From: Carcharhinus amblyrhynchos
Lineage: Eukaryota
Length of the DNA: 64,000 bases
Assembly: GCA_965287045.1 (NCBI GenBank)
Contig: OZ336871.1
Span: forward strand, 66,278,001 to 66,342,000
Direction: 5' to 3'
The notes under the pieces are model-generated. The model searched no databases. It had not been told where the DNA came from and saw only the letters and a list, made by a program, of their open reading frames with translations. Positions 4,410-38,452 of this stretch are shown here, piece by piece. A program made the translations under genes and the position numbers. Positions within the stretch are counted from its first letter, which is position 1, and every line of letters starts with the position of its first letter.

Positions 4410-5140
4410 ATATTAGCATGGTTTAGAAGATTCATTAATGAACAGGAAGCAGAGCACAGACATAAACAGGGCATTTTGAAGTTGGCAGGCTGTGGTTACA
4501 GGAGTGCTGCAAGGATCAGTGCTGGCATCTCAACTATACGCCATCTATACTAATGGCTTAAATAAAAAGACAGAATAATGTATCTAAGTTTGCTGTTGGT
4601 GCAAAGCTAGTTGGGCAGGAAAACCGTGGGGAGTTCAGGCAAGATAAAGACAGGTTCAATGACTGGGCAACAAAATGGCAGCTGGAATATAATGTGAGCA
4701 AGTGTGAAGTTGTTTGTTTTGGCTGTAAAAATAGAAAAACAAAATATTTTTTAAAGGTATAAAACTTGTAAATGTTGATGTTCAAATAGTCTGGGGAGCA
4801 CTCATGCACAGATGCAGGAAGTTAGCAATAGCAAACAATGAGAAAAGCAAGAGGAATATTGACATTTATAGTAGGGGGATTGGTGTACAGGAATAATGAA
4901 GTCTTGCTACAATTTTGGAGGTTTTTATTGAGACTGCATTTGGAGCATTGTGAGCAGATTTAGTTTGCTAAATAAGGAAGGATATACTTGCAGTGAAGGC
5001 AGCACAGCAAAGGTTCACTTGATTGTTCCCAGTTGGGATGAGGAAATTGTCTTCTGATGAGAGGCTAAGTAGATTAGGTTTGCATTATATGGTTTAGAGA
5101 AATGGGAGATGATTTCACTAAAACATAGGCCTGCAAGGAG
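4410..5140 (+). mobile_element. Degenerate CR1 RT fragment
   Basis: SKFA(D), W..KWQLEYNVSKCEV and LRLHLEHC-like motifs with many stops. Confidence 0.75.
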
Positions 5141-8139: not shown

Positions 8140-8660
8140 TGCATATAGGTTCTGTATGGCATTTGTTAAACATAGTGGGAAGTTAGCTTGAACAATGAGG
8201 TTATGCTGAATTTGTACAAGACACTAGTAAGACTTCAGCTGAAGTTCTGAGTACTGCACTTAAGAAGGATGCGAACGCAATAGAGGGAGAGCAGAAGAGA
8301 TTTACTAGAATGGTTCCAGGGACGAGCAAGTTCGGTTATAGGGAGAGATTGGAGATGTTGGGAGTGTTCCCCTTGGGAGAAAAAAAAGCTAAAAGGAGTT
8401 TTGATAGCGTGTTCAAAATCATGAAGGGACTCAACAGAGTAGGTAAGGAAAAACTGCACCCGCTCTTGAAAGGATCAAGAACAAGAGGGCACAGATTTAA
8501 GGTGATTTGCAAAAGGAGCATATGTGATGTGAGAAAAAGCTTTTCCACACAGCAAGTGGTTTAGGTCTGGAATGCACTGTCTAAAAGTGTGGTGGAAGCA
8601 GGTTCAATGAAGCATTCAAGAAGCCATTAGATGATTGTTTGAATGGAAACTATTTGAATA
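8140..8660 (+). mobile_element. CR1 3' fragment
   Basis: ORF 8310-8564 YRERLEMLGVFPL...SRTRGHRFKV. Confidence 0.85.
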
Positions 8661-8814
8661 GAAACAATTCCTAAAATGACTGAGGATGCTGAAGCTGACC
8701 ATACGTGTTGGACCTGGATAAAGCCTTCATCTTATTGATCATGAAAACAAGGAAACTCTACTTTTGTAGCCCACTGTACAGATAACTGTGCTTGCAATAA
8801 CATGAGAGTATAAA

Positions 8815-10760
8815 AAAGAGCTGGAGTAGGCCATTTGGTTAATTCTACCTTCCCATACTATCTCCATATTCTTTAATTTCTTTAGTAATCAATAATTTAT
8901 TGATCACTGATGCGAATATGCTCAATGACTGAGCAACCACAACTCCCTGGGGGTAGAGAATTCCAAAGACTCAAAATCCTTTGAATGAAGGAATTTCTTT
9001 TCAAAATGGCTGACCTCTAATTCTGAGACTGCTCTAGATCCCCAGCCAGGCAGACATTTTCTCAACATTTATTCTGTCAATCTCCTTAAGAATTTATATG
9101 TTTCAGTGAGGTCATTTCCCTTTCTCTGAAACCCCAGAGAATAAAGCTTTGTCTATTCAATCTCTCCTCATAGGACAATCCACTCTTTCCAGGAATAACC
9201 AATTTTGTGAAATTTTGCTGCACTCCCTCTAGGGCAGGTATATACTTTCTTAGGTAAGGAGACCAAAACGGCACACAGTATTCTAGTGTGGCCTCACCAA
9301 TGCTCTTTATAATTGTAGGAAGATTTCTTTGCTCTTGCACACCAATTTCTTTGTAACAAAGCTAACATACCATTTGCCTTCCTAGTTTCTTGCTGTATCT
9401 GTATGTTAACATGTTGTGATTCACTGAGGGGCCTACTCCTAATTCATATGATCATATGTAAAGGACATCCAAATCCCTCTGAGTACAAACATTTCCTAAT
9501 CTCTAACCAATCAAATAATATTTTTGTTTTTCCTATCAAATGGGAATAATATCACACTTCTCTGCCTTCTATTCAATCTGCCATCTTCTTATCCACTCCC
9601 CAAACTGTTTAAATTTCTTTGCAGCCACTTTGCATCTCCCACAACACTTACTTTCCTGCCTAACTTTGTGTCATTATCATACTTGGATACATTACACTCA
9701 ATCCTTCATCTAAGTAATCAGTGTAGTTTGTAAATAACTGAAGCTCAAGTACTGATCTTTGTGGCACCTCACTGTCAACCGTAAAATGTCTTATGTATTC
9801 CTACTCTCTGTTTAACTAATTCTCAATCCATGTTAATATATTACCCCCAATCCCAAGAGACCTAATTTGCTGTAATGACCTTTGATGTGGTGCCTAATCA
9901 AATGTGTTTTGAAAATCCAAATACACTGGTTCCGTTTTATCTGTTAGTTGCAATCTCCAAATCTTCTAACAGTCTTGTCAAACACAATTTCCCTTTCATA
10001 AATCTGCTTAATCATATTAAGATTTTCTCAGTAGCTTACAACACACCCCTAATAATACAGTCTTGTATACATGCCATAAACTCATCTGCATACTGTCATA
10101 ATATATCTGGTTTGCCCATTCAATGTTCAAGGCTTCCATATTTACTATATCATCCTTATTCCAGGCACACCTAATTTCCTGATTTAAACTCTGCCCTACA
10201 CTCCATCTACTGTTAGGGTCCATATGGACAATGGCAATCAGCATTATCTGTCCCTTGCTGGCTTTTAGCTCCACCAAAACTGATTTTACTTCTTTATTTT
10301 CTGAGCTAATGACCCCCCCTCTCTCTCAACTGTCTTTATCTCCATCCTTTATTATAGGCAAGGTGTCTCAAACCCGGCTATCCTAAAACTGGTGATGTCT
10401 GAAAATTGGGCATCTTTTTAAGCTACCATGTAGAAAGTTAATTATTCTTAGGTTAATAAGCTAACTTACCAGCTTTGGCCTGGATGTGCATTGACTAGTT
10501 ATCGGCTTTGCATGCCTGTCTTTTCCCATGCACCAAGTAATCTGAGCATCTCTTGACCCTCTTGACCCAACTTGGCCCTGATCTGAAAACCGCTAAGATC
10601 CAAAATCCAGTACAAACCCAATGCCAATGTTACCAGTTTTCAGGCACTATCAATATCAGGGCCAACCATCCTCTTTTCTATTCTGCCAATTTCTTTAAAA
10701 GTTAAGAATCCTGGAATTTTTAATTCCCAACTTTAGTAACATTGCAACTCTGTTGCTGTA
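8815..10760 (-). mobile_element. Old, deleted CR1 ORF2 (endonuclease to 3' end)
   Basis: ORF 9086-9340 LEYCVPFWSPYLRK; ORF 10017-10277 VELK..KGQIMLIAIV (APE-like). Confidence 0.75.
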
Positions 10761-14104: not shown

Positions 14105-17100
14105 TATATTTATGTAGCATCTTTAACATAAAACACCCCAAGGTGCTTCACAAAGGCATCATGAAACACAGAATCATACCAAGCAACCTAAGGAAATATT
14201 AGGTCAGATGAGCAAAAGCTTCCTCAGAAAGGTTGGTTTAAGGAATGTCTCAAGGGGAAGTGAGGTAGAGAAGGGAAGACGTGTAGAAAGGAAATTTCAG
14301 GAAACTGAATGCATGACCATCAAAGTGATTGATTATGGGGGAAGTCAAGAGTTCAGACTATTATAAGCCCAGTTATCTGAGAGGGTTGTGGGGCTGGGTG
14401 AAGTTACAGAAATAGGGAGTGGTGAGGTAATGGAGAGATTTGAAAACACAGATTAGAATTTTAATCAAGATGTTGCTTGTCTGGAAGACAACAAAAACCA
14501 GCGAACACAGGGTTTTAGCAGATAGGGAATTGCTGCAAGTTAAGACAGGGGCAGCTGAGTTTCGGATGACCTCAAGTTCAGGGAGGGTCAAATATGGGAG
14601 ACCAACCAAAATGCATTGGAATAGTCAAGTCTAGAGGTACCAAAGGCATGTATGAGGATTTCAACAACAGATGAGCCTAGATGGGGTCAAAGTCAGGCAT
14701 TATTAAGGAGATGGAAATAGGCAGTCTTAGTAACGGCATTAATATAAGATCAGAAGCTCATTTTGGGATTAAATGTGATACCAAGGTTGCAAGCAGACTG
14801 GCTTAATCTCAGACTGTTACCAAAGAGAGGTATGGAGTTGGTAGCTACGGAATGGAATTTAGAGCATAGATTGAAAACAATGACTTCAGTCTTCCCAAAG
14901 TTTAATTGGAGGAAGTTTTGGCTTACCTGTTACCAGATGATGGATCAGCAGTCTAATAATTGAGCAACAGTACAGCAATTGAGAAAACTGGTGGTTGTAA
15001 TATTCAATTGTTCAGTGTTTGATTGTGTGTGTCTGTTGACAGTTCACCGTGCAGCTAGTCAGTCACTCTTGGCTGTGGTTACACAGAAACTGAAATTAAA
15101 CTGAAGGCTAAAAGCTGTAAACATGAGAGTGCAGATGTTTTAAAAGCACATGTAAATTAATCTCCTGTATGCTCACAGCAACTGGTGTCATCTTTGCATA
15201 TCTCCAAAGAATGTAATACAACAGTGGCGAGGTATAGCTTGTGATATATGTGAAAATTAACCCTGTGCTGCTGGCTGAGGGGTAACAGGCAGATGAGAAG
15301 TGGAAGGGAGCCAAGGACCAATCCTCAGGGAACATCAGAGTTAATGGTGCGGGAGCAGGAAGGAAAACCATTGCAAGTGATTCTCTAGAACATATAACGT
15401 AGAACATTACAGCGCAGTACAGGCCCTTCAGCCCTTGATATTGCACCTGTGAAACAAATCTAAACCCATCTAACCCACAATATCATCCAATGACCATTTA
15501 AATGTCCTTAATGTTGGTGAATCCACTACTGTTGCAGGCAGGGCATTTCACACTCTTACTACTCTCTGAGTAAAGAACCTACTTCCGACATCTGTCCTAT
15601 ATCTATCACCCCTCAATTTAAAGCTATGTCCCCTCATGCTAGCCATCACCATCCCAGGAAAAAGGTTCACATTGTCCACCCTACCTAATCCCCTGATCAT
15701 CTTATATGCCTCTATTAAGTCACCCCTTAACGTTCTTCTCGCTAATGAAAACAGCCTCAAGTCCCTCAGTCTTTCCTTATACCAAACCAGACAACATCCT
15801 AGTAAATCTCCTCTGCACCCTTTCCAATGCTTCCACATCCTCCCTATAATGCAGCAACCAGAACTGTACGCAATACTTCAAGTGCGGCCACACCGGAGTT
15901 TTGTACAGCTGCAACATGACCTCATAGCTCCTAAACTCAATCCCTCTACCAATAAAAGCTAACACACCGTGCACCTTCTTAACAACCCTATCAACCTGGG
16001 TGTCAGCTTTCAGGGATCCATACACATGAACACCGAGATCTCTCTGCTCATCCACACAACCAAGTAACTTACCATTTGCCCAGTACTATGTATTCCTGTT
16101 TTTCCTTCCAAAGTGAATCACTTCACCCTTATCCACATTAAGCTCCATTTGCCACCTCTCAGCCCAGCTCTGCAGCTTATCTTTGTCCCTCTGTGACCTG
16201 CAACATCCTTCCGCACTGTCCACACTCCACCAACTTTAGTGTCATCCGCAAATTTACTAACCCATCCTTCTACGCCCTCATCCAGGTCATTTATAAAAGT
16301 GACAAACAGCAGTGGCCCCAGAACAGATCCTTGCGGTATACCACTAGTAATTAAACTTCAGGATGAACATTTCCCACCAACCGCCATCCTCTGTCTTCTT
16401 GCAGCTAGCCAATTTCTGATCCAAACTGCGAAATCACCCTCAATTCCATGCATCCATATCTTCTGCAATACTTACCGTGAGGAACCTTATCAAACACTTT
16501 ACTGAAATCCGTGTGCCTCATATCAACTGCTTTACCCTCATCCACCTCTTTGGTCACCTTCTCAAAGAATTCAATAAGGTTTGTGAGGCACAACCTACCC
16601 TTCACAAAACCATGTTGACAATCCATAATCAAATTATCCCTTTCTGGGTGATTATAAATCCTATCTCTTATAATCCTTTCCAGAACTTTGTCCACAACAG
16701 AAGGAAGACTCACTGGTCTATAATTACCTGGGTTGTCTCTACTCTTCTTCTTGAACAGTCTTCTGGCACTATTCCTGTAGACAATGATGACCTAAAGATC
16801 AAAACCAAAGGCTCTGCACTCTCCTCCCTAGCCTCCCAGAGAATCCTAGGATAAATCCCATCTGGCCCAGAGGTCTTATCTATTTTCATACTTTCCAGAA
16901 TTGCTAACACCTGCTCCTTATGAACTACAATCCCGTCTAGTCTAATACCCTGTATCTCAGTATTAATAGTGGATATCTCAGTACTAATATCCCTCTGGCT
17001 GGGATCTTCTAAGCCCAATGAAAGTCCAAGCACTCTTGATTGGCTGGCTGCATCCCTTGCAGGGGGGTTGGAGGGAGGGGAAGGGTACTGTCATGGGGGG

Positions 17101-18724: not shown

Positions 18725-19310
18725 CCCAATGCCTCTTACCCACCCTAAACTCCATTCCTTCCATAATTCAACAATCTGACCACATTGAATACACATTGCT
18801 ACTGTCCATTTTATTCTTTGTTCACAAGTTTGTTTTGTGGCACTGTATCAAATACTGCTTGGAAGTTGAAGTACACTACATTAACAGCATTGCCCACATC
18901 AACTCTCCCAGTTATCTCTTCAAAAAAAGCACCAGCTAGTTAAACATGAAATTCCCTTCAGAAATCCATGCTGACTTTCCTTAATTAACACATATTTATC
19001 CATGTGAGTATTATATCTGTCCTGAATTAGAAGGTTCCCTTCTACTTACGTTAAACTGACTGGCCTATAGCTGCTGGACTTATTATTTTTACTTTCTTGA
19101 AATAAGGATGTGACATTTGCAATTCTCCAGTCCTCTGGCACCAGCCCTGAACTTCAGGAAGGCTGAAAAATTATGGCCAATCCTTCTGCAATATCCACTC
19201 TCATTTCCCTCCAAATCCTTAAATGCATCTCATCTGGTCCTGATGCTTTATTGACTTTTAAGTGCAGACAGCCTATCTAATATATCCTCCTTATCAATTT
19301 TAAATCCTAA
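18725..19310 (-). mobile_element. Degenerate CR1 RT fragment
   Basis: Reverse strand shows KVNKASGPDEMH, WRIANVTSLF and SQHGFLKG motifs. Confidence 0.75.
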
Positions 19311-25189: not shown

Positions 25190-25535
25190 AAGATTTTATT
25201 CTAATTAATTGATATTAGATAAGAACAGCATGGTTCCGAATGCAATTCATTCTGGAGCACAGGCTTTAGTACAACAACCGGGGTGATGAAGGTGCCTGCG
25301 TCTTTTGCTTTGTTCAGCACATTTAGCCATTTCTTACTATCACATGGAGTGACTTGAATTGGGTGAAGCATTAGCATCTCTGATGGTAGAAAGCTTAGGA
25401 GGAGACAGAGAGGATCATCCATTCAACAGCTTTGGCTGCAAATAGTTGTAAACCTTTTAGATTGCATTTTGAATTCATATGCTGGACTCTGCCAACATTG
25501 GGGATGGGGTGTTCAAGGGCCCTCCTCCTCCCACT
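25190..25535 (-). mobile_element. Old CR1-group LINE RT fragment (second lineage)
   Basis: ORF 25201-25422 IQVTPCDSKKWLNVLNKAKDAG...VVLK. Confidence 0.6.
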
Positions 25536-25559
25536 GGTTTTAGGGTCTGTGCAAGAGGA

Positions 25560-26420
25560 TGGAGCATACAGGAATAAATAATGGAAACTTGTCAGAAAGG
25601 TACAGCAATAATTATGGGATATTTTAATCTATGTGAATTGGAAAAGATAAATGGACAAAAGTAGCAAAGACAGGGCAGGCTCAAGGGGCCAAATAGCCTA
25701 CTCCTACTCCTAGTTCTTATGAGGAGTTCATAGAATATTTTCGGGTTAGTTTCGTAGAACAGTATACTCTGGAGCCAACCAGAGAGCAGGCTATATAAGC
25801 CCTGGTATTATGGGATTAATTAATGATCTCATAGTGAAGACACTCATAGGTAGCAGTGATCATAATATGATTTAATTTTACATTCAGTTTGAAGGAGAGA
25901 AGAATGGATCTGAGACTATGTTTTCAAACTGAAATAAGGGCAAATATGAGAACATGAAAGCAAAATTGGATAAAGTGAATTGGCTTATTACGTTAAGGGA
26001 TAGGTTAAGTGAGATACAGTGGCAAACATTTAAGGGAATATTTTAGAATACACTGAATAGAAATGTTCCAATGAATAAGAAAAAGTTGAACGGGTGGTCA
26101 CACCATCCGTGGTTAACTAGAAAAGCTAGAGACATTATCAAACTTAAAGAAAAAGCATAGAATAGTACAAAGCTAAGTGGAAGGTCAGAAGATTGGGCAG
26201 AGTATAAGGAACGGAAAAGGATGACTAAAAGATTAATAAGAAAGGCACGTTAGCGTATAAGAGAAAGAGAACGAGAAAGATCAAAACAGATAGTGAGGGT
26301 TTCTATAACTACCTTTTAAAAAAACGTGTTAACAAAATGAGCATTGGTTCTATAGAAAGTGAATTTAGAGAATTCATAATAGAAAACAAGGAAATGGCTG
26401 GTAAATTGAAAGGGTATTTC
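25560..26420 (+). mobile_element. Degenerate CR1 endonuclease/tether fragment
   Basis: IIMGYFNL, GSSDHNMI, HPWLTRK, ENKEMAGKLKGYFA motifs. Confidence 0.8.
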
Positions 26421-26679
26421 GCTGGCACTGCCCAAGGGGCACTACCCCTTGCCCCAACCTCAATGTCCTTTGGTTCTATTGGTGAGGCCATCAAGACTAG
26501 TCCTGGTTGCTGGGGACCAGCTGTGATTCTTGCCAGAGAGAGTCTTTCCTGGAGAGGCCACACAGTCAGGTGAGCCTACATGATTACGTCCCGGACTCAA
26601 TAATTCAATGCAAAGTTGCACTTGAATGTAATTTAAATAAATTATTCAGCCTTACACCGGAAATGGGCATGAGACTGAT

Positions 26680-33718: not shown

Positions 33719-34036
33719 TAAAGAACAAAGAACAACCCAGCATGGGAAACAGGCCCTTCGGCCCAACGAGCCCGTGCCGCCGCATCACCCTACACCTATT
33801 CTACCCTGCGTGTCTACGAATGGAACCCCTAACTTAGCCAGATTCAGGGGAGAATAGTGTCAATTTGGTAAAACCAATCAGCCTAAGAGCACATCTTTGG
33901 GGTGTGGGAGGAAACCGGAGCGCCCGGAGGAAACCCACGCAACCACAGGGAGAATGTGCAAGCTCCCACAGACACAGACCCAAATCCATGTATCTGCACA
34001 GCTAGCAGTGCTAGTCACCGAGCTGTTGCGGTGCCC
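33719..34036 (-). mobile_element. V-SINE-derived 3' UTR segment of the LINE
   Basis: V-domain TTGCACATTCTCCCTGTGGTTGCGTGGGTTTCCTCCGGGCGCTCCGGTTTCCTCCCACACCCCAAAGATGTGC; degenerate head GGGCACCGCAACAGCTCGGTGACTAGCACTGCT; no B-box. Confidence 0.85.
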
Positions 34037-34239
34037 GTCTACCGGTCCAGGATCAAGCACACACACCGACACGAAGTACTAGGCCACTCCCGGAACCTCC
34101 AAGAGCAGCCCACGCACGACCCACCGTGTGCATGCCCCTCGTTTGACACGAGGTGGACTTCCACCTGCGGAATAAAAAGACAAAAAACGTTAATCTTACA
34201 AGCCTGCTTTTCCGGTGTCTCCTGAGGTTCCAACCTTAT

Positions 34240-35811
34240 TTAATAGCCCCTACCATAACCCTCCATCCTCGTTTCACCCATGTGTCTATCTAACTGAACC
34301 TTAAACGAGTCCAACGTTCCTGCCTCCACCACCCTACTCGGTAGCGCGTTCCATACCCCCACAACTCTCTGCGTAAAGAACCTTCCTCTCACTTCCAAAT
34401 TATACCTCTCCCTCCTCACCCTTAAATCACGACCTCTCGTGTTTGTACCCAGTCTAGGGAGCAGTCTCTCACTATTAACTCTATCTATTCCCTTCAGTAT
34501 CTTATATACCTCTATCATGTCCCCCCTCAATCTCCGTCTTTCCAAGGAGAATAGTCCCAGTTTCTCCAACCTTTCCTCGTAACCCAGCCCCTCCATGCCA
34601 GGCAACATCCTGGTAAACCTCCTCTGCACCCTTTCCAGAGCCTCCACGTCCTTCCGGTAGTAAGGTGACCAGAACTGGACGCAGTACTCCAAATGTGGTC
34701 TAACCAACGTTCTGTACAACTGAAGCATTAGACGGCAGCTTTTATACTCTATACCCCTTCCTATAAAGGCTAACATTCCATACGCCTTCCTAACAACATT
34801 CTCCACTTGTGTCGCAACCTTCATGGATTTGTGAACCTGCACTCCCAGGTCCCTCTGTATGTCTATACTCCTAATCTGTCTACCTTTTATCACATAGCTC
34901 CTCTCTGCATTATTCCTTCCAAAATGCATCACCTCGCATTTGTCAGGGTTAAATTCCATCTGCCACCTATCTGCCCAATGCACCAACCTATCTATATCCT
35001 GTTGTATCACCTGACAATCCAGTTCAGTAACCGCCAACCCTGCCATCTTGGTGTCATCAGCAAACTTGCTGATCACACCACCTACACTCTCTTCCAAGTC
35101 ATTTATGTATACTACAAAGAGGAGAGGTCCCAGTACTGAGCCCTGTGGCACACCACTGGTCACTGGCCTCCAGCCCGACAAGGTCCCCTCCACAACTACC
35201 CTCTGTCTCCTATTACCCAGCCAGTTCTCAATCCACCTAGCTACCTGGCCTCGTATCCCATGCGCCTTAACCTTTTCTACCAGCCTACCATGAGGGACTT
35301 TGTCAAACGCCTTACTGAAATCCATATAGATGACATCAACGGCTCTCCCATCGTCAACCGTTTTTGTCACCTCCTCAAAGAATTCCACCAGATTCGTAAG
35401 GCAAGACCTCCCTCTAACAAAGCCATGTTGCGTATCCCTAATCAAATCGCAACGCTCCAAATGCTCATACATCCTACCCCTAAGTATTTTTTCCATTAAT
35501 TTCCCTACCACCGATGTCAAACTCACCGGTCTATAATTTCCAGGGTTATCCCTACTACCTTTTTTGAACAGCGGTACTACATTTGCTACCCTCCAGTCCT
35601 CTGGGACCGCACCTGTGTCCAAAGAAGAGACAAAGATTTGCGCCAGAGGCCCAGCAATTTCATCTTTCACCTCCCTAAGCAGCCTGGGATAAATACCATC
35701 AGGCCCCGGAGCTTTATCCGTCCTTACGCTACCTAAAAGCCCTAGCACTTCCTCCCTCGTAATAGATATTTCCTGCCACTGATCCTCCGCTCCCTCCAAG
35801 AGAGACCGCAC
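34240..35811 (-). CDS. CR1 ORF2 C-terminal part: reverse transcriptase
   Basis: [74 protein letters not shown]; 523 aa without stops. Confidence 0.97.
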   Translation of the reverse strand: MRSLLEGAEDQWQEISITREEVLGLLGSVRTDKAPGPDGIYPRLLREVKDEIAGPLAQIFVSSLDTGAVPEDWRVANVVPLFKKGSRDNPGNYRPVSLTSVVGKLMEKILRGRMYEHLERCDLIRDTQHGFVRGRSCLTNLVEFFEEVTKTVDDGRAVDVIYMDFSKAFDKVPHGRLVEKVKAHGIRGQVARWIENWLGNRRQRVVVEGTLSGWRPVTSGVPQGSVLGPLLFVVYINDLEESVGGVISKFADDTKMAGLAVTELDCQVIQQDIDRLVHWADRWQMEFNPDKCEVMHFGRNNAERSYVIKGRQIRSIDIQRDLGVQVHKSMKVATQVENVVRKAYGMLAFIGRGIEYKSCRLMLQLYRTLVRPHLEYCVQFWSPYYRKDVEALERVQRRFTRMLPGMEGLGYEERLEKLGLFSLERRRLRGDMIEVYKILKGIDRVNSERLLPRLGTNTRGRDLRVRRERYNLEVRGRFFTQRVVGVWNALPSRVVEAGTLDSFKVQLDRHMGETRMEGYGRGY

Positions 35812-37100
35812 GATTCCGAACCCCTCTCCTTCGGGAATACTGACGCAAAGTATTCATTCAGGAGCTCCCCCATTCCCTCCGACTCAATACATAACTCCCC
35901 ACTTTTGTCCCTAAGAGGACCAATTTTCCCTCTAACCACTCTCTTGCTCCTAATATAGGAATAAAATGCCTTTGGATTTTCCTTAATCCTACCAGCCAAA
36001 GCCATTTCATGCCCTCTCTTCTCCCTTCTAATTCCCCTTTTTAGCTCCCTCCTACTCTCTCTATATTCCTCCAGCGCACTCTCCGTACCCAGTCGTTTCG
36101 ACCTAACATACACCTCCCTCTTCTTCCTGACCAAGTCTTCAATACCCCCTGTAATCCACGGCTCTCCAATCCTACCTTTCCCATCCTTCCGCTTAACTGG
36201 AACATACCTCCCCTGCAACCATTTCATTTTGCCCTTAAAAGCTTCCCACTTGCCAACCGTGGACTTTCCAGCTGACAGTCCCTCCCAATCAGTGTCCTGC
36301 AGCTCCCTCCTAATCCTGCCATAGCTCGCCTTTCCCCAGTTCAGCACACTCCCGTTCGGCCGGCACTCGTCCCTTTCCATTTTTATCCTAAAGTAGACGG
36401 ACTTGTGGTCACTGTTAGCCACATGTTCGCCTACCTCTACCTCACCCACCTGCCCTGGCTCATTACCCAACACTAAATCCAGTATAGCCCCTTCCCTACT
36501 CGGGCTAGTTACATACTGCTCCAGCGACCCTTCCAAAACACATTTCACAAACTCCTCTCCCTCTGTACCCCCAGCTCTAGGCCCCCTCCAATTCACTCCA
36601 GGAAGATTAAAGTCACCCACTACAACCACTCTATTCTTCCTGCACCTATCCAAAATGCCCCTGCAAATGCCTTCCTCCACTGACCTCGGGCTGTTGGGTG
36701 GCCTATAATACACCCCTAGCAACGTAATCTCTCCCTTTTTATTCCTCAACTCCACCCACAGTGACTCAATCCCTGTCTCTTCCATATCGTCCTCCCTCTG
36801 CACTACTGTGATGTTTTCCTTTACTAACAGTGCCACCCCTCCACCTCTCTTCAACCCTCCTCTGTCACACCTAAAACACTTGTACCCAGGAACATTCAGC
36901 TGCCAGTCCTGCCCTTCCCGTAACCACGTCTCCGTTACAGCCACCACATCTAACTGCCTCACAAACATCAAGGCCCTAAGCTCATCCGTTTTCCCTGCCA
37001 CACTCCTAGCATTGAAACAGACACAGTTCAACCCATGAGTGTCCCTCGGAACCTCCTTCTCCCTGATAATTTTCCTTTCACCCGACCCTCTCCCAGCCAC
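35742..37100 (-). CDS. CR1 ORF2 N-terminal part: APE-like endonuclease + tether (frameshift near 35810; no AUG start)
   Basis: CFNARS, VTETWL, GGGVALLV, GVYYRPP, VGDFNLP, LDLVL, SDH catalytic motifs; PWIT and NEYFASVF. Confidence 0.95.
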   Translation of the reverse strand: MAGRGSGERKIIREKEVPRDTHGLNCVCFNARSVAGKTDELRALMFVRQLDVVAVTETWLREGQDWQLNVPGYKCFRCDRGGLKRGGGVALLVKENITVVQREDDMEETGIESLWVELRNKKGEITLLGVYYRPPNSPRSVEEGICRGILDRCRKNRVVVVGDFNLPGVNWRGPRAGGTEGEEFVKCVLEGSLEQYVTSPSREGAILDLVLGNEPGQVGEVEVGEHVANSDHKSVYFRIKMERDECRPNGSVLNWGKASYGRIRRELQDTDWEGLSAGKSTVGKWEAFKGKMKWLQGRYVPVKRKDGKGRIGEPWITGGIEDLVRKKREVYVRSKRLGTESALEEYRESRRELKRGIRREKRGHEMALAGRIKENPKAFYSYIRSKRVVRGKIGPLRDKSGELCIESEGMGELLNEYFASVFPKERGSESCGLSWRERRISGRKYLLRGRKC

Positions 37101-37120
37101 CTCCCCACCCCCCTTCCCTA

Positions 37121-38014
37121 TTAGTTTAAACCATTCCTGAACACCCCAGCTAACCTCCCCGCTAAGACACTAGTTCCCCTCCCGTTCAAATTCTCCCCAC
37201 CCCTCCTGTACAGTTGCCCTTCTCTCCTAAACACCTCCCAGTGATCCACAAAAGTAAAGCCCTCTACCCTATACCAATCCCTCAGCCATGCATTCAACTG
37301 CATGATCTCGTCATTCTTTGCCCTGCTAATACTGGGCAGCAACCCAGAGAGTGCCACCCTGGAGGTCCTGCTCTTTAGTTTAGACCCCAACTCCCTAAAT
37401 TGCCTACGGACCTCTACCCTACTCCTCCTTCCTATGTCCCCCTCCCCTACGTGTACTATGACCTCTGCCTGTGCCCCCTCCCCTTTCAAAATTCCCTCTA
37501 CCCTGTCCGTTACATTCTTTACCCCTGCTCCAGGGAGGCAGACTACCATCCTGGTGTCGCGCCTCTGTCCACAGAACCTCTTATCAATACCTCGGACCCT
37601 CCCATCCCCTACCACTATCACCTTGCCAGCCCCCTTCTGTCCCTCTAAGTCAGTCTCCCCCTCCTGCCTATCTTTCTGTGCCCCTGTCGACGAACCTTGA
37701 GGGGCCTCCGGGGAGGCCGGGGGACCCTGACTACTCTTCTTCTTCCTCTTTCCCCTCCTAACAGTCGTCCACCCTTCCTGCTCTTCAGCCCTTGGGACCT
37801 CTTCCTGCTCGTGGCTCCTAGCCATCAACTCCTCGTTTTCCCTGACTAGAAACGCATCCTCCAAACGCCCCTCGAGTTGCCTGACCCGGGCCCTCAAGCA
37901 CTGCAGTTCTAAACATTTACTGTAGATGTGGACCTTGGGGACACGCGACACCACCAAGAACTCCCACATGTAGCACCTGACACAACTTATATTCCTCCCT
38001 ATATTCCCTGCCAT
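37121..38014 (-). CDS. CR1 ORF1p: zinc finger/coiled coil + SGNH esterase-like domain
   Basis: ATG at 38014; CVRCYMWEF..HIYSKC, heptads LRARVRQLEGRL, WTTVRRGKRKKK, VIVVGDG, CLPGA, VHVGEGD, SGLLP, LNAWL, ends GLN*. Confidence 0.92.
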   Translation of the reverse strand: MAGNIGRNISCVRCYMWEFLVVSRVPKVHIYSKCLELQCLRARVRQLEGRLEDAFLVRENEELMARSHEQEEVPRAEEQEGWTTVRRGKRKKKSSQGPPASPEAPQGSSTGAQKDRQEGETDLEGQKGAGKVIVVGDGRVRGIDKRFCGQRRDTRMVVCLPGAGVKNVTDRVEGILKGEGAQAEVIVHVGEGDIGRRSRVEVRRQFRELGSKLKSRTSRVALSGLLPSISRAKNDEIMQLNAWLRDWYRVEGFTFVDHWEVFRREGQLYRRGGENLNGRGTSVLAGRLAGVFRNGLN

Positions 38015-38170
38015 GTCCCAACCTCCTGTATGTGGCAAAAGGTAGAAATCTGTCACTCACCTTCTCTAAGCCTGCTCTCGCCCAAGCCCAGTGAGCCAAA
38101 GCCCTTCTCACTCAGTTCCCACTCACTCCGCTGCCCGCTCCCGACGCTGCCCGCTGTGTGCTGCTACCCC

Positions 38171-38265
38171 TTTTTTATACCCCCCGCACCCCCTTAACGA
38201 CTATCCCCTCGCCTAACTTCCGGTACGGAAGTAAACTACACTCACAAGCCCCGAGAACCGGAAGT
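38171..38265 (-). promoter_or_regulatory. Candidate internal Pol II promoter of the LINE (three ETS sites + TATA)
   Basis: ACTTCCGG 38216-38223, CGGAAGT 38226-38232, ACCGGAAGT 38257-38265; TATAAAAAA on the minus strand 38179-38171; CpG-rich. Confidence 0.55.
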
Positions 38266-38344
38266 ACAGGAAAAAAGCGGTTTTCAATTCAAATCAGTCA
38301 CTCACCACAGCCACAGCCACCAGGTTCAATGCTCCGGAGAACAA

Positions 38345-38452
38345 TGTTAACTTGGATCTTGTTTGTCTCTCTTGTGGGGACAAAGTGGGGATTTTGAATT
38401 TGTTTTTTTACAGCAAGCAAGGAATGGATTTGTATTTGCCCGGTCCATTCTG
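38345..38452 (+). pseudogene. U2 snRNA-derived sequence, 3' part (continuation after the LINE)
   Basis: Hairpin TGTCTCTcttgtGGGGACA (cf. U2 stem IIb GTCCTCtatccGAGGAC), T-rich Sm-like tract, then CAGCAAGCAAGGAAT...TTGCCCGGTCCATTC (cf. U2 GAGCAGGGAGATGGAAT...TTGCTCCGTCCACTC). Confidence 0.55.

Follow-up and report, generated by a model that had tools for sequence, protein, structure and literature searches.

The 64,000-nucleotide (nt) stretch of Carcharhinus amblyrhynchos DNA analysed here (contig OZ336871.1, positions 66,278,001 to 66,342,000; hereafter the window) carries a full-length copy of a CR1 long interspersed nuclear element (LINE). Its two open reading frames, ORF1 and ORF2, are very probably joined by a programmed -1 ribosomal frameshift, which would yield an ORF1-ORF2 fusion of about 1,260 amino acids. 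A slippery heptamer, the -1 phase, an open linker and the motif GGGGG-NN-GGG at +11 are conserved across eight CR1 families. In the model we propose, tRNA-Leu and tRNA-Asn would slip back jointly on U_UUA_AAC, directly upstream of the ORF1 stop. A minority of ribosomes would then make a fusion of ORF1, linker, endonuclease and reverse transcriptase (RT) with the junction NG-L-N-L-I-G. The remaining ribosomes would release the ORF1 protein (ORF1p) and hence bring about a high ratio of ORF1p to ORF2p. The parts of the element in the window are as follows (G4, G-quadruplex).

33720..38346, minus strand: full-length CR1 LINE copy of about 4.6 kb (blastn against eight family copies, 96–97% identity)
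37121..38014, minus strand: ORF1, 297 amino acids, SGNH-esterase type, C-terminus NGLN-stop (ORF scan, Pfam, homologs)
37124..37130, minus strand: slippery heptamer U_UUA_AAC, the final two ORF1 codons and the base before them (column comparison)
37121..37123, minus strand: ORF1 stop, TAA in the window copy and TAA, TAG or TGA across families (column comparison)
37104..37113, minus strand: candidate stimulator, the 3' motif GGGGG-NN-GGG that spans +11..+20 relative to the heptamer (columns invariant in 8/8 families)
37081..37118, minus strand: wider G-tract, only partly G4-capable in the window family (copy comparison, G4 scan)
37014..37124, minus strand: transframe linker of 37 open -1 codons from the heptamer to the NARS motif, including the TTG-coded Leu at 37031 that opens the endonuclease
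35802..37013, minus strand: endonuclease half of ORF2, whose first AUG (36968) falls within the domain (Pfam, translation)
34240..35802, minus strand: RT half of ORF2, in the window copy in another frame than the endonuclease half (break near 35802)

The ORF1/ORF2 junction within and between CR1 families

The element has the proteins of a canonical CR1. Its ORF1 is of the esterase type (39–59% identity to SGNH-annotated homologs), and its ORF2 contains an apurinic-type (APE) endonuclease and an RT, with Pfam matches to PF03372 and PF00078 that both lie above the cut-off. The ORF1 matches to Lipase_GDSL_2 and OSK are near or under the curated cut-offs, and the closest named ORF1 homologs come from rays and sharks. 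The window copy itself is dead, with a 1-nt break in ORF2 near 35802; a related family copy has an open frame of 975 amino acids.

A first-pass annotation of the window had proposed the frameshift from the sequence alone, and the layout it described is correct. TTTAAAC at 37130-37124 on the minus strand reads T-TTA-AAC in ORF1 phase and abuts the stop TAA at 37123-37121. The -1 frame, said to be open into the endonuclease, has no stop between 37169 and 35742, a stretch that takes in the endonuclease. The first ORF2 AUG (36968) does come late, after FNARS and 16 residues within the Pfam Exo_endo_phos match. TTTAAAC occurs once in the ORFs; its chance at a given place is 3e-5, and that of any XXXYYYZ is 1.7e-3. 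The real support beyond this single-site chance is the conservation of the heptamer across families.

Close copies can contribute little to this question. The heptamer and the stop are kept in all 30 close copies, which were the top matches of 40 that had been scored out of 2,020 candidates and are hence chosen for likeness. The junction therefore belongs to the family and is not a private mutation; more than that these copies do not show. The divergent copies are more informative. Homolog queries and direct fetches gave 135 loci from the shark's own genome. After removal of 15 duplicates or mis-anchored loci and of four lacking an anchored ORF1 end, 116 copies remained. They form eight families at 55–74% DNA identity, or ten groups, since two families are split. 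The alignment anchors excluded the heptamer itself.

Both TTTAAAC and the -1 phase, two of the junction features whose alignment had been suggested as a check, are kept in all eight families. The exact heptamer stands at the ORF1 end in 100 of the 116 copies, and NNT-TTA-AAC-stop are the commonest codons in every one of the ten groups. The codon before the heptamer codons varies (GGT, ACT, GAT, CGT), the stop varies (TAA, TAG, TGA) and the heptamer is constant. The phase is -1 in 79 of the 107 copies with both anchors; the other two phases have 14 copies each.

One could argue that only the protein is under constraint: ORF1p would need a C-terminal Leu-Asn, the G-motif would code for Gly-x-Gly, and the heptamer would be a by-product. 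The Leu-Asn end is indeed conserved as protein across vertebrates, and translation of the G-motif in the -1 frame gives G-x-G in 10/10 groups. We consider this explanation very improbable for the following reasons. First, among the last 68 ORF1 codons of seven families (family 2 was omitted, as its four copies broke the column frame) there are 20 invariant residues. Seventeen of them are degenerate, and synonymous positions are fixed in only two of these 17 columns, the terminal Leu and Asn, each of which uses a single codon. Elsewhere TTA makes up 14 of 89 Leu codons and AAC 18 of 38 Asn codons. Second, the third base of the variable codon before them is fixed as well. Third, both Gly codons of the motif are GGG, although GGG accounts for only 14 of 40 downstream Gly codons, and a G-x-G constraint itself presupposes translation from the heptamer on. 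Judged by these codon columns, protein constraint as the sole explanation appears largely refuted.

The spacer between heptamer and endonuclease has changed in length among the families, and the NARS motif is always in the -1 frame. The eight spacer lengths (37, 41, 45, 46, 49, 51, 52 and 61 codons) correspond to seven length changes, each a multiple of three. Stops are absent from the 480 codons of the -1 frame, with 24 in frame 0 and 46 in +1. Length changes in multiples of three and a -1 frame without stops are the pattern expected of a translated transframe linker. Contigs of sequencing runs add a weak observation from the same family: none of 28 variant rows falls in the heptamer or the G-motif, and the flanks vary; one contig in run X10 has a 5-nt insertion within the G-tract.

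Two side observations on copies of the genome may be useful. In P0016 and L037, ORF1 continues in frame across the junction into the endonuclease, presumably through a private 1-nt indel. L126-L131 (G000:C2:145557400-145562800 and five others) belong to a CR1 subfamily that is very young and has intact frames of 310 and 979 amino acids in 6/6 copies examined. Dozens of equal-scoring matches to this youngest subfamily occur in the genome, and judging by its sequences it is probably active.

The heptamer can also be followed to distant relatives. A profile search returned 150 proteins, for a total of 166 ids with the first 18 included; behind the DGxH motif these have 84 distinct C-termini. Of these tails 55 end in Asn: 43 in LN, 8 in GN (all QGN), 2 in SN, 1 in EN and 1 in KN. 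The named homologs ending in LN are from a snake, two lizards, turtles, a frog, a sturgeon and an eel. LN, GN and KN ends are what U_UUA_AAC, G_GGA_AAC and A_AAA_AAC, respectively, encode. G_GGA_AAC is hence predicted for the GN group and is seen in both GN loci with DNA (L096 and L098). The -1 frame of L096 is open over 70 codons to the endonuclease; in L098 the stop lies one codon further downstream of G_GGA_AAC. Among the further loci, L102 and L103 were unrelated matches, and L097 and L101 are without an ORF1 end. A residue without a T-ending codon precedes LN in only 1 of 43 ends (P 0.006 against the local background, 0.0008 overall). The same count is 16 and 14 at the two preceding positions (farther positions, 3–5).

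L099, which is labelled amniote-type on the basis of its RALN end, keeps the heptamer, the stop and the G-motif at +11. Its -1 peptide runs uninterrupted in two further copies (P0198 and P0199) into sequence that is joined to the endonuclease motif in L099, which makes the frame break in L099 itself private. In an A+T-rich lineage, L104 and L105 have TTTAAAC-TAG and a G-run at +11. These two are animal-type CR1 copies within contigs of a bacterial metagenome-assembled genome, and P0009 carries the name of a Pseudomonas protein; all three are host contamination of public bacterial assemblies. The ORF1 homologs P0088 and P0067 end in FFR and FFH, and from these ends their lineages may use a U_UUU_UUY heptamer. 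No relatives were found among viral contigs, and plasmid and phage collections gave no match. Searches of the shark genome with P0026 and P0020 found no match at a strict E-value, a cut-off that makes the result uninformative.

The junction thus has an X_XXY_YYZ heptamer in the phase of the upstream ORF, a conserved open -1 frame, and conservation and covariation of the heptamer at the nucleotide level, as a programmed -1 site should. Codon invariance, phase retention, the stop-free -1 spacer and the switch to G_GGA_AAC strongly support the frameshift at the level of sequence.

Points against frameshifting, reinitiation and splicing

Several observations speak against a frameshift and need to be weighed. 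The CR1 families are related and not independent draws, which makes our P values optimistic. Twenty-eight of 107 copies lie outside the -1 phase, and we read these as decayed. Among the homologs, 29 of 84 tails end in a residue other than Asn, and the heptamer position of L100 reads TTTAAAG. The decayed outgroup copies L099, L100, L104 and L105 have a net phase of 0 as found; a private indel was traced for L099 only. Downstream of the heptamer we found no hairpin or Watson-Crick fold (z +1.83; 197 of 200 shuffles fold equally well). An in-frame AUG upstream of the endonuclease, which the first-pass annotation regarded as evidence to the contrary, is absent in the window family and present at differing positions in five of the ten groups, among them the intact youngest subfamily.

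These AUGs point to the most serious competitor, termination followed by reinitiation, the accepted route in LINEs with two ORFs (covered passages of PMC2881922 and PMC5972666). Ribosomes would restart at a nearby AUG, as with the UAAUG of SART1, or independently of AUG, as in L1, at the CUG or UUG that opens the endonuclease, and would make a free ORF2p. In family 5, UAAUG is present in 12 of 18 copies. The youngest subfamily has an in-frame AUG at -1 codon 3, 5 nt past the stop, in 6/6 intact copies (TTG in 11/11 older copies). For the Leu at the start of the endonuclease, seven of eight families use CTG or TTG and one uses TTA; L096 has ATG there (P ~0.03).

Nevertheless, reinitiation is an improbable explanation of the junction. 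It leaves unexplained the fixed XXXAAAC, the switch to G_GGA_AAC and, in L098, the stop at a distance of one codon. If ribosomes restarted at the endonuclease, 37–61 spacer codons would not stay in phase and free of stops. Before the endonuclease, five of ten groups have no AUG at all, and the others have it at codons 1, 3, 8, 23 or 36, with no common position. A UAAUG overlap of the SART1 type was found in only one of the eight families; at the stop-start position, the window family has ATA in 28 of 29 copies and ATG in one. Lineages with an upstream AUG all keep the heptamer, and in some of them reinitiation may take place alongside frameshifting.

ORF2 could also be joined or freed at the RNA level, through splicing or transcriptional slippage. 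The ACTAAT after the heptamer in the window family looks like a branch point. The hexamer is not conserved, however: other families have TAG-ATT or TAG-AAA, and we dropped the branch-point reading for this reason. A pyrimidine tract is absent, and base runs measure just 3 nt. Contigs of seven distinct sequencing runs have no GT-AG joint listed at the junction, which is weak evidence, as these are contigs only and their RNA status is guessed. We think that such an origin of ORF2p is hardly likely.

The G-motif downstream of the heptamer

Around the junction, the positions invariant in 8/8 families are -6..+1, +11..+15 (GGGGG), +18..+20 (GGG) and one G at -12. Of the 100 copies with the heptamer, 70 have the exact GGGGG-NN-GGG at +11, and each of three full-length loci contains the motif at just two places. 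The spacing of +11 holds in 8/8 families, and a G-run stands at +11 in L099, L104 and L105; in L096 it has moved by 2 nt.

The first-pass annotation had proposed that six G-runs form a G4 that stimulates the frameshift. Six runs of at least three G do start 5 nt past the heptamer (37118-37081), but the fifth (37088-37086) is specific to the window copy and reads GAG in 29/29 other copies. The run at +6, which had been emphasised, is not conserved across families. In a scan of 12 loci (L096 and L104 left out), a four-run G4 pattern is present in one locus with loops of up to 7 nt and in three, from two groups, with loops of up to 12 nt. A conserved four-run G4 with runs of at least three G and short loops, 5–8 nt past the heptamer, was not found, since just two runs, at +11..+20, are invariant across families. 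All 12 loci have a G4Hunter-like score within the top 0.1–5% of windows, so that a two-tier or intermolecular G4 might form in K+, and the tract of the window family could fold into a three-tier G4 (L139). The G4 claim should be replaced by that of a conserved two-run G-motif at +11.

Other folds fare no better. A fold common to 12 loci downstream of the heptamer was not found, nor was a classical 3' pseudoknot or hairpin 5–9 nt downstream, in fold tests that did not model pseudoknots explicitly. As a partner in a long-range duplex, a C-rich tract about 1,000–1,120 nt upstream pairs in three groups, with a median of -22 to -26 kcal/mol, and fails in the other seven. The comparison ran without a G-rich control motif, and we did not accept this partner. 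In the three groups (those of L126, L133 and L057) this tract of the 5' region is complementary to the G-motif, with changes that look compensatory; the other groups are without the tract.

That the G-motif is the stimulator is more speculative than the frameshift itself. [quoted passage not shown] A G4, two-tier or in some families three-tier, is a tentative second choice. A peptide role or some other role for the motif is somewhat doubtful, and its action in a long-range duplex is unlikely.

In PRRSV, nsp1beta and PCBP stimulate frameshifting through the motif CCCANCUCC, which lies 11 nt 3' to the shift site (covered passages of PMC5009743). The CR1 junction resembles it in having a short, unstructured, homopolymer-rich motif fixed 11 nt behind the shift site. 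It differs in that the motif is G-rich and not C-rich, that PRRSV shifts by -2 and that a CR1 binding protein is only hypothetical. PRRSV also shifts by -1. Synthetic or transplanted G4s stimulate -1 shifting on UUUAAAC by at most 7%, with an optimum spacer of 6–8 nt (covered part of PMC3919603). CR1 is similar in having G-runs 5–10 nt past UUUAAAC and dissimilar in that only two G-runs, starting at +11, are conserved.

Known systems, significance and further observations

The closest known arrangement is that of retroviral gag-pol and coronavirus 1a/1b (infectious bronchitis virus, U_UUA_AAC; PMC5009743 in the part covered), where a heptamer of the same class in ORF1 phase connects a structural ORF with a polymerase ORF in the -1 frame. 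In the same passages, U_UUA_AAC and G_GGA_AAC are among the shiftiest heptamers for mammalian ribosomes. Viral -1 sites use G_GGA_AAC as a natural alternate, as do relatives of CR1. CR1 is, however, a non-LTR retrotransposon and has a short G-motif at +11 where the viruses have a pseudoknot or hairpin. On the sequence comparison, its junction would work like retroviral -1 frameshifting without a classical folded stimulator.

Other non-LTR elements of different clades share the need for a frameshift: the covered passages state that Dictyostelium TRE5-A and TRE3-A require a -1 shift (PMC5911963), and mention a gag frameshift in HeT-A (PMC5009743), without giving a heptamer or an assay. The latter source attributes LINE ORF2 to unconventional initiation. 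L1 and SART1, for which reinitiation is described (PMC2881922 and PMC5972666, in part), face the same problem of expressing ORF2 from a bicistronic LINE RNA, and UAAUG is also a -1 arrangement, found here in one CR1 family. In contrast to CR1, they make a free ORF2p and need no slippery site; in CR1 the AUG is not conserved. In the open literature covered, which includes parts of PMC4316615, PMC3905857, PMC3708506, PMC11835228 and PMC5006619, we found no proposal of frameshifting in CR1. The founding CR1 papers (Haas 1997/2001, Kajikawa 1997, Kapitonov and Jurka 2003) together with Kojima 2005 and Alisch 2006 lie outside this coverage and may mention the junction. The covered passages of the 2026 CR1 survey PMC13343379 do not mention "frameshift", and those of PMC5009743 do not mention "CR1".

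How two-ORF LINEs produce ORF2p has been answered for L1 and SART1 alone, in each case by reinitiation. If our model is correct, the most widespread group of vertebrate LINEs uses a retrovirus-like strategy, and CR1 ORF2p is a fusion that bears esterase and zinc-finger/coiled-coil domains. This would account for CR1 ORF2 often being without a usable AUG and would change how ORF2 is annotated and cloned. The fixed G-motif could be a natural 3' stimulator of a new class. We speculate that the RT of CR1, the dominant LINE in most vertebrates, may have been made as a Gag-Pol-like fusion for more than 400 million years, invertebrate relatives included, driven by a protein on the G-motif 11 nt downstream and not by an RNA fold. 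The G-motif would then possibly mirror the PRRSV signal in a G-rich form, through which the host or ORF1p might control transposition; we hold both ideas only tentatively. Intact copies in the genome make the frameshift claim directly testable.

The window holds a few further features. In its ORF1 (37124-38014, minus strand) the esterase motifs are changed, with GDG for GDS and a DxxH motif without the His, and the same is true of the closest homologs P0001 and P0002. From these residues, the esterase of the window family may be catalytically dead despite the recent spread of the family. The 5' untranslated region (38014-38130, minus strand) contains GTGAGT motifs and, just before the ORF1 start, a pyrimidine tract whose last bases are CAG; these look like splice signals. 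Finally, many other truncated LINE fragments lie in the window, for example at 15473-16940, 18817-19261, 4423-5082, 8202-9926 and 25527-26423.
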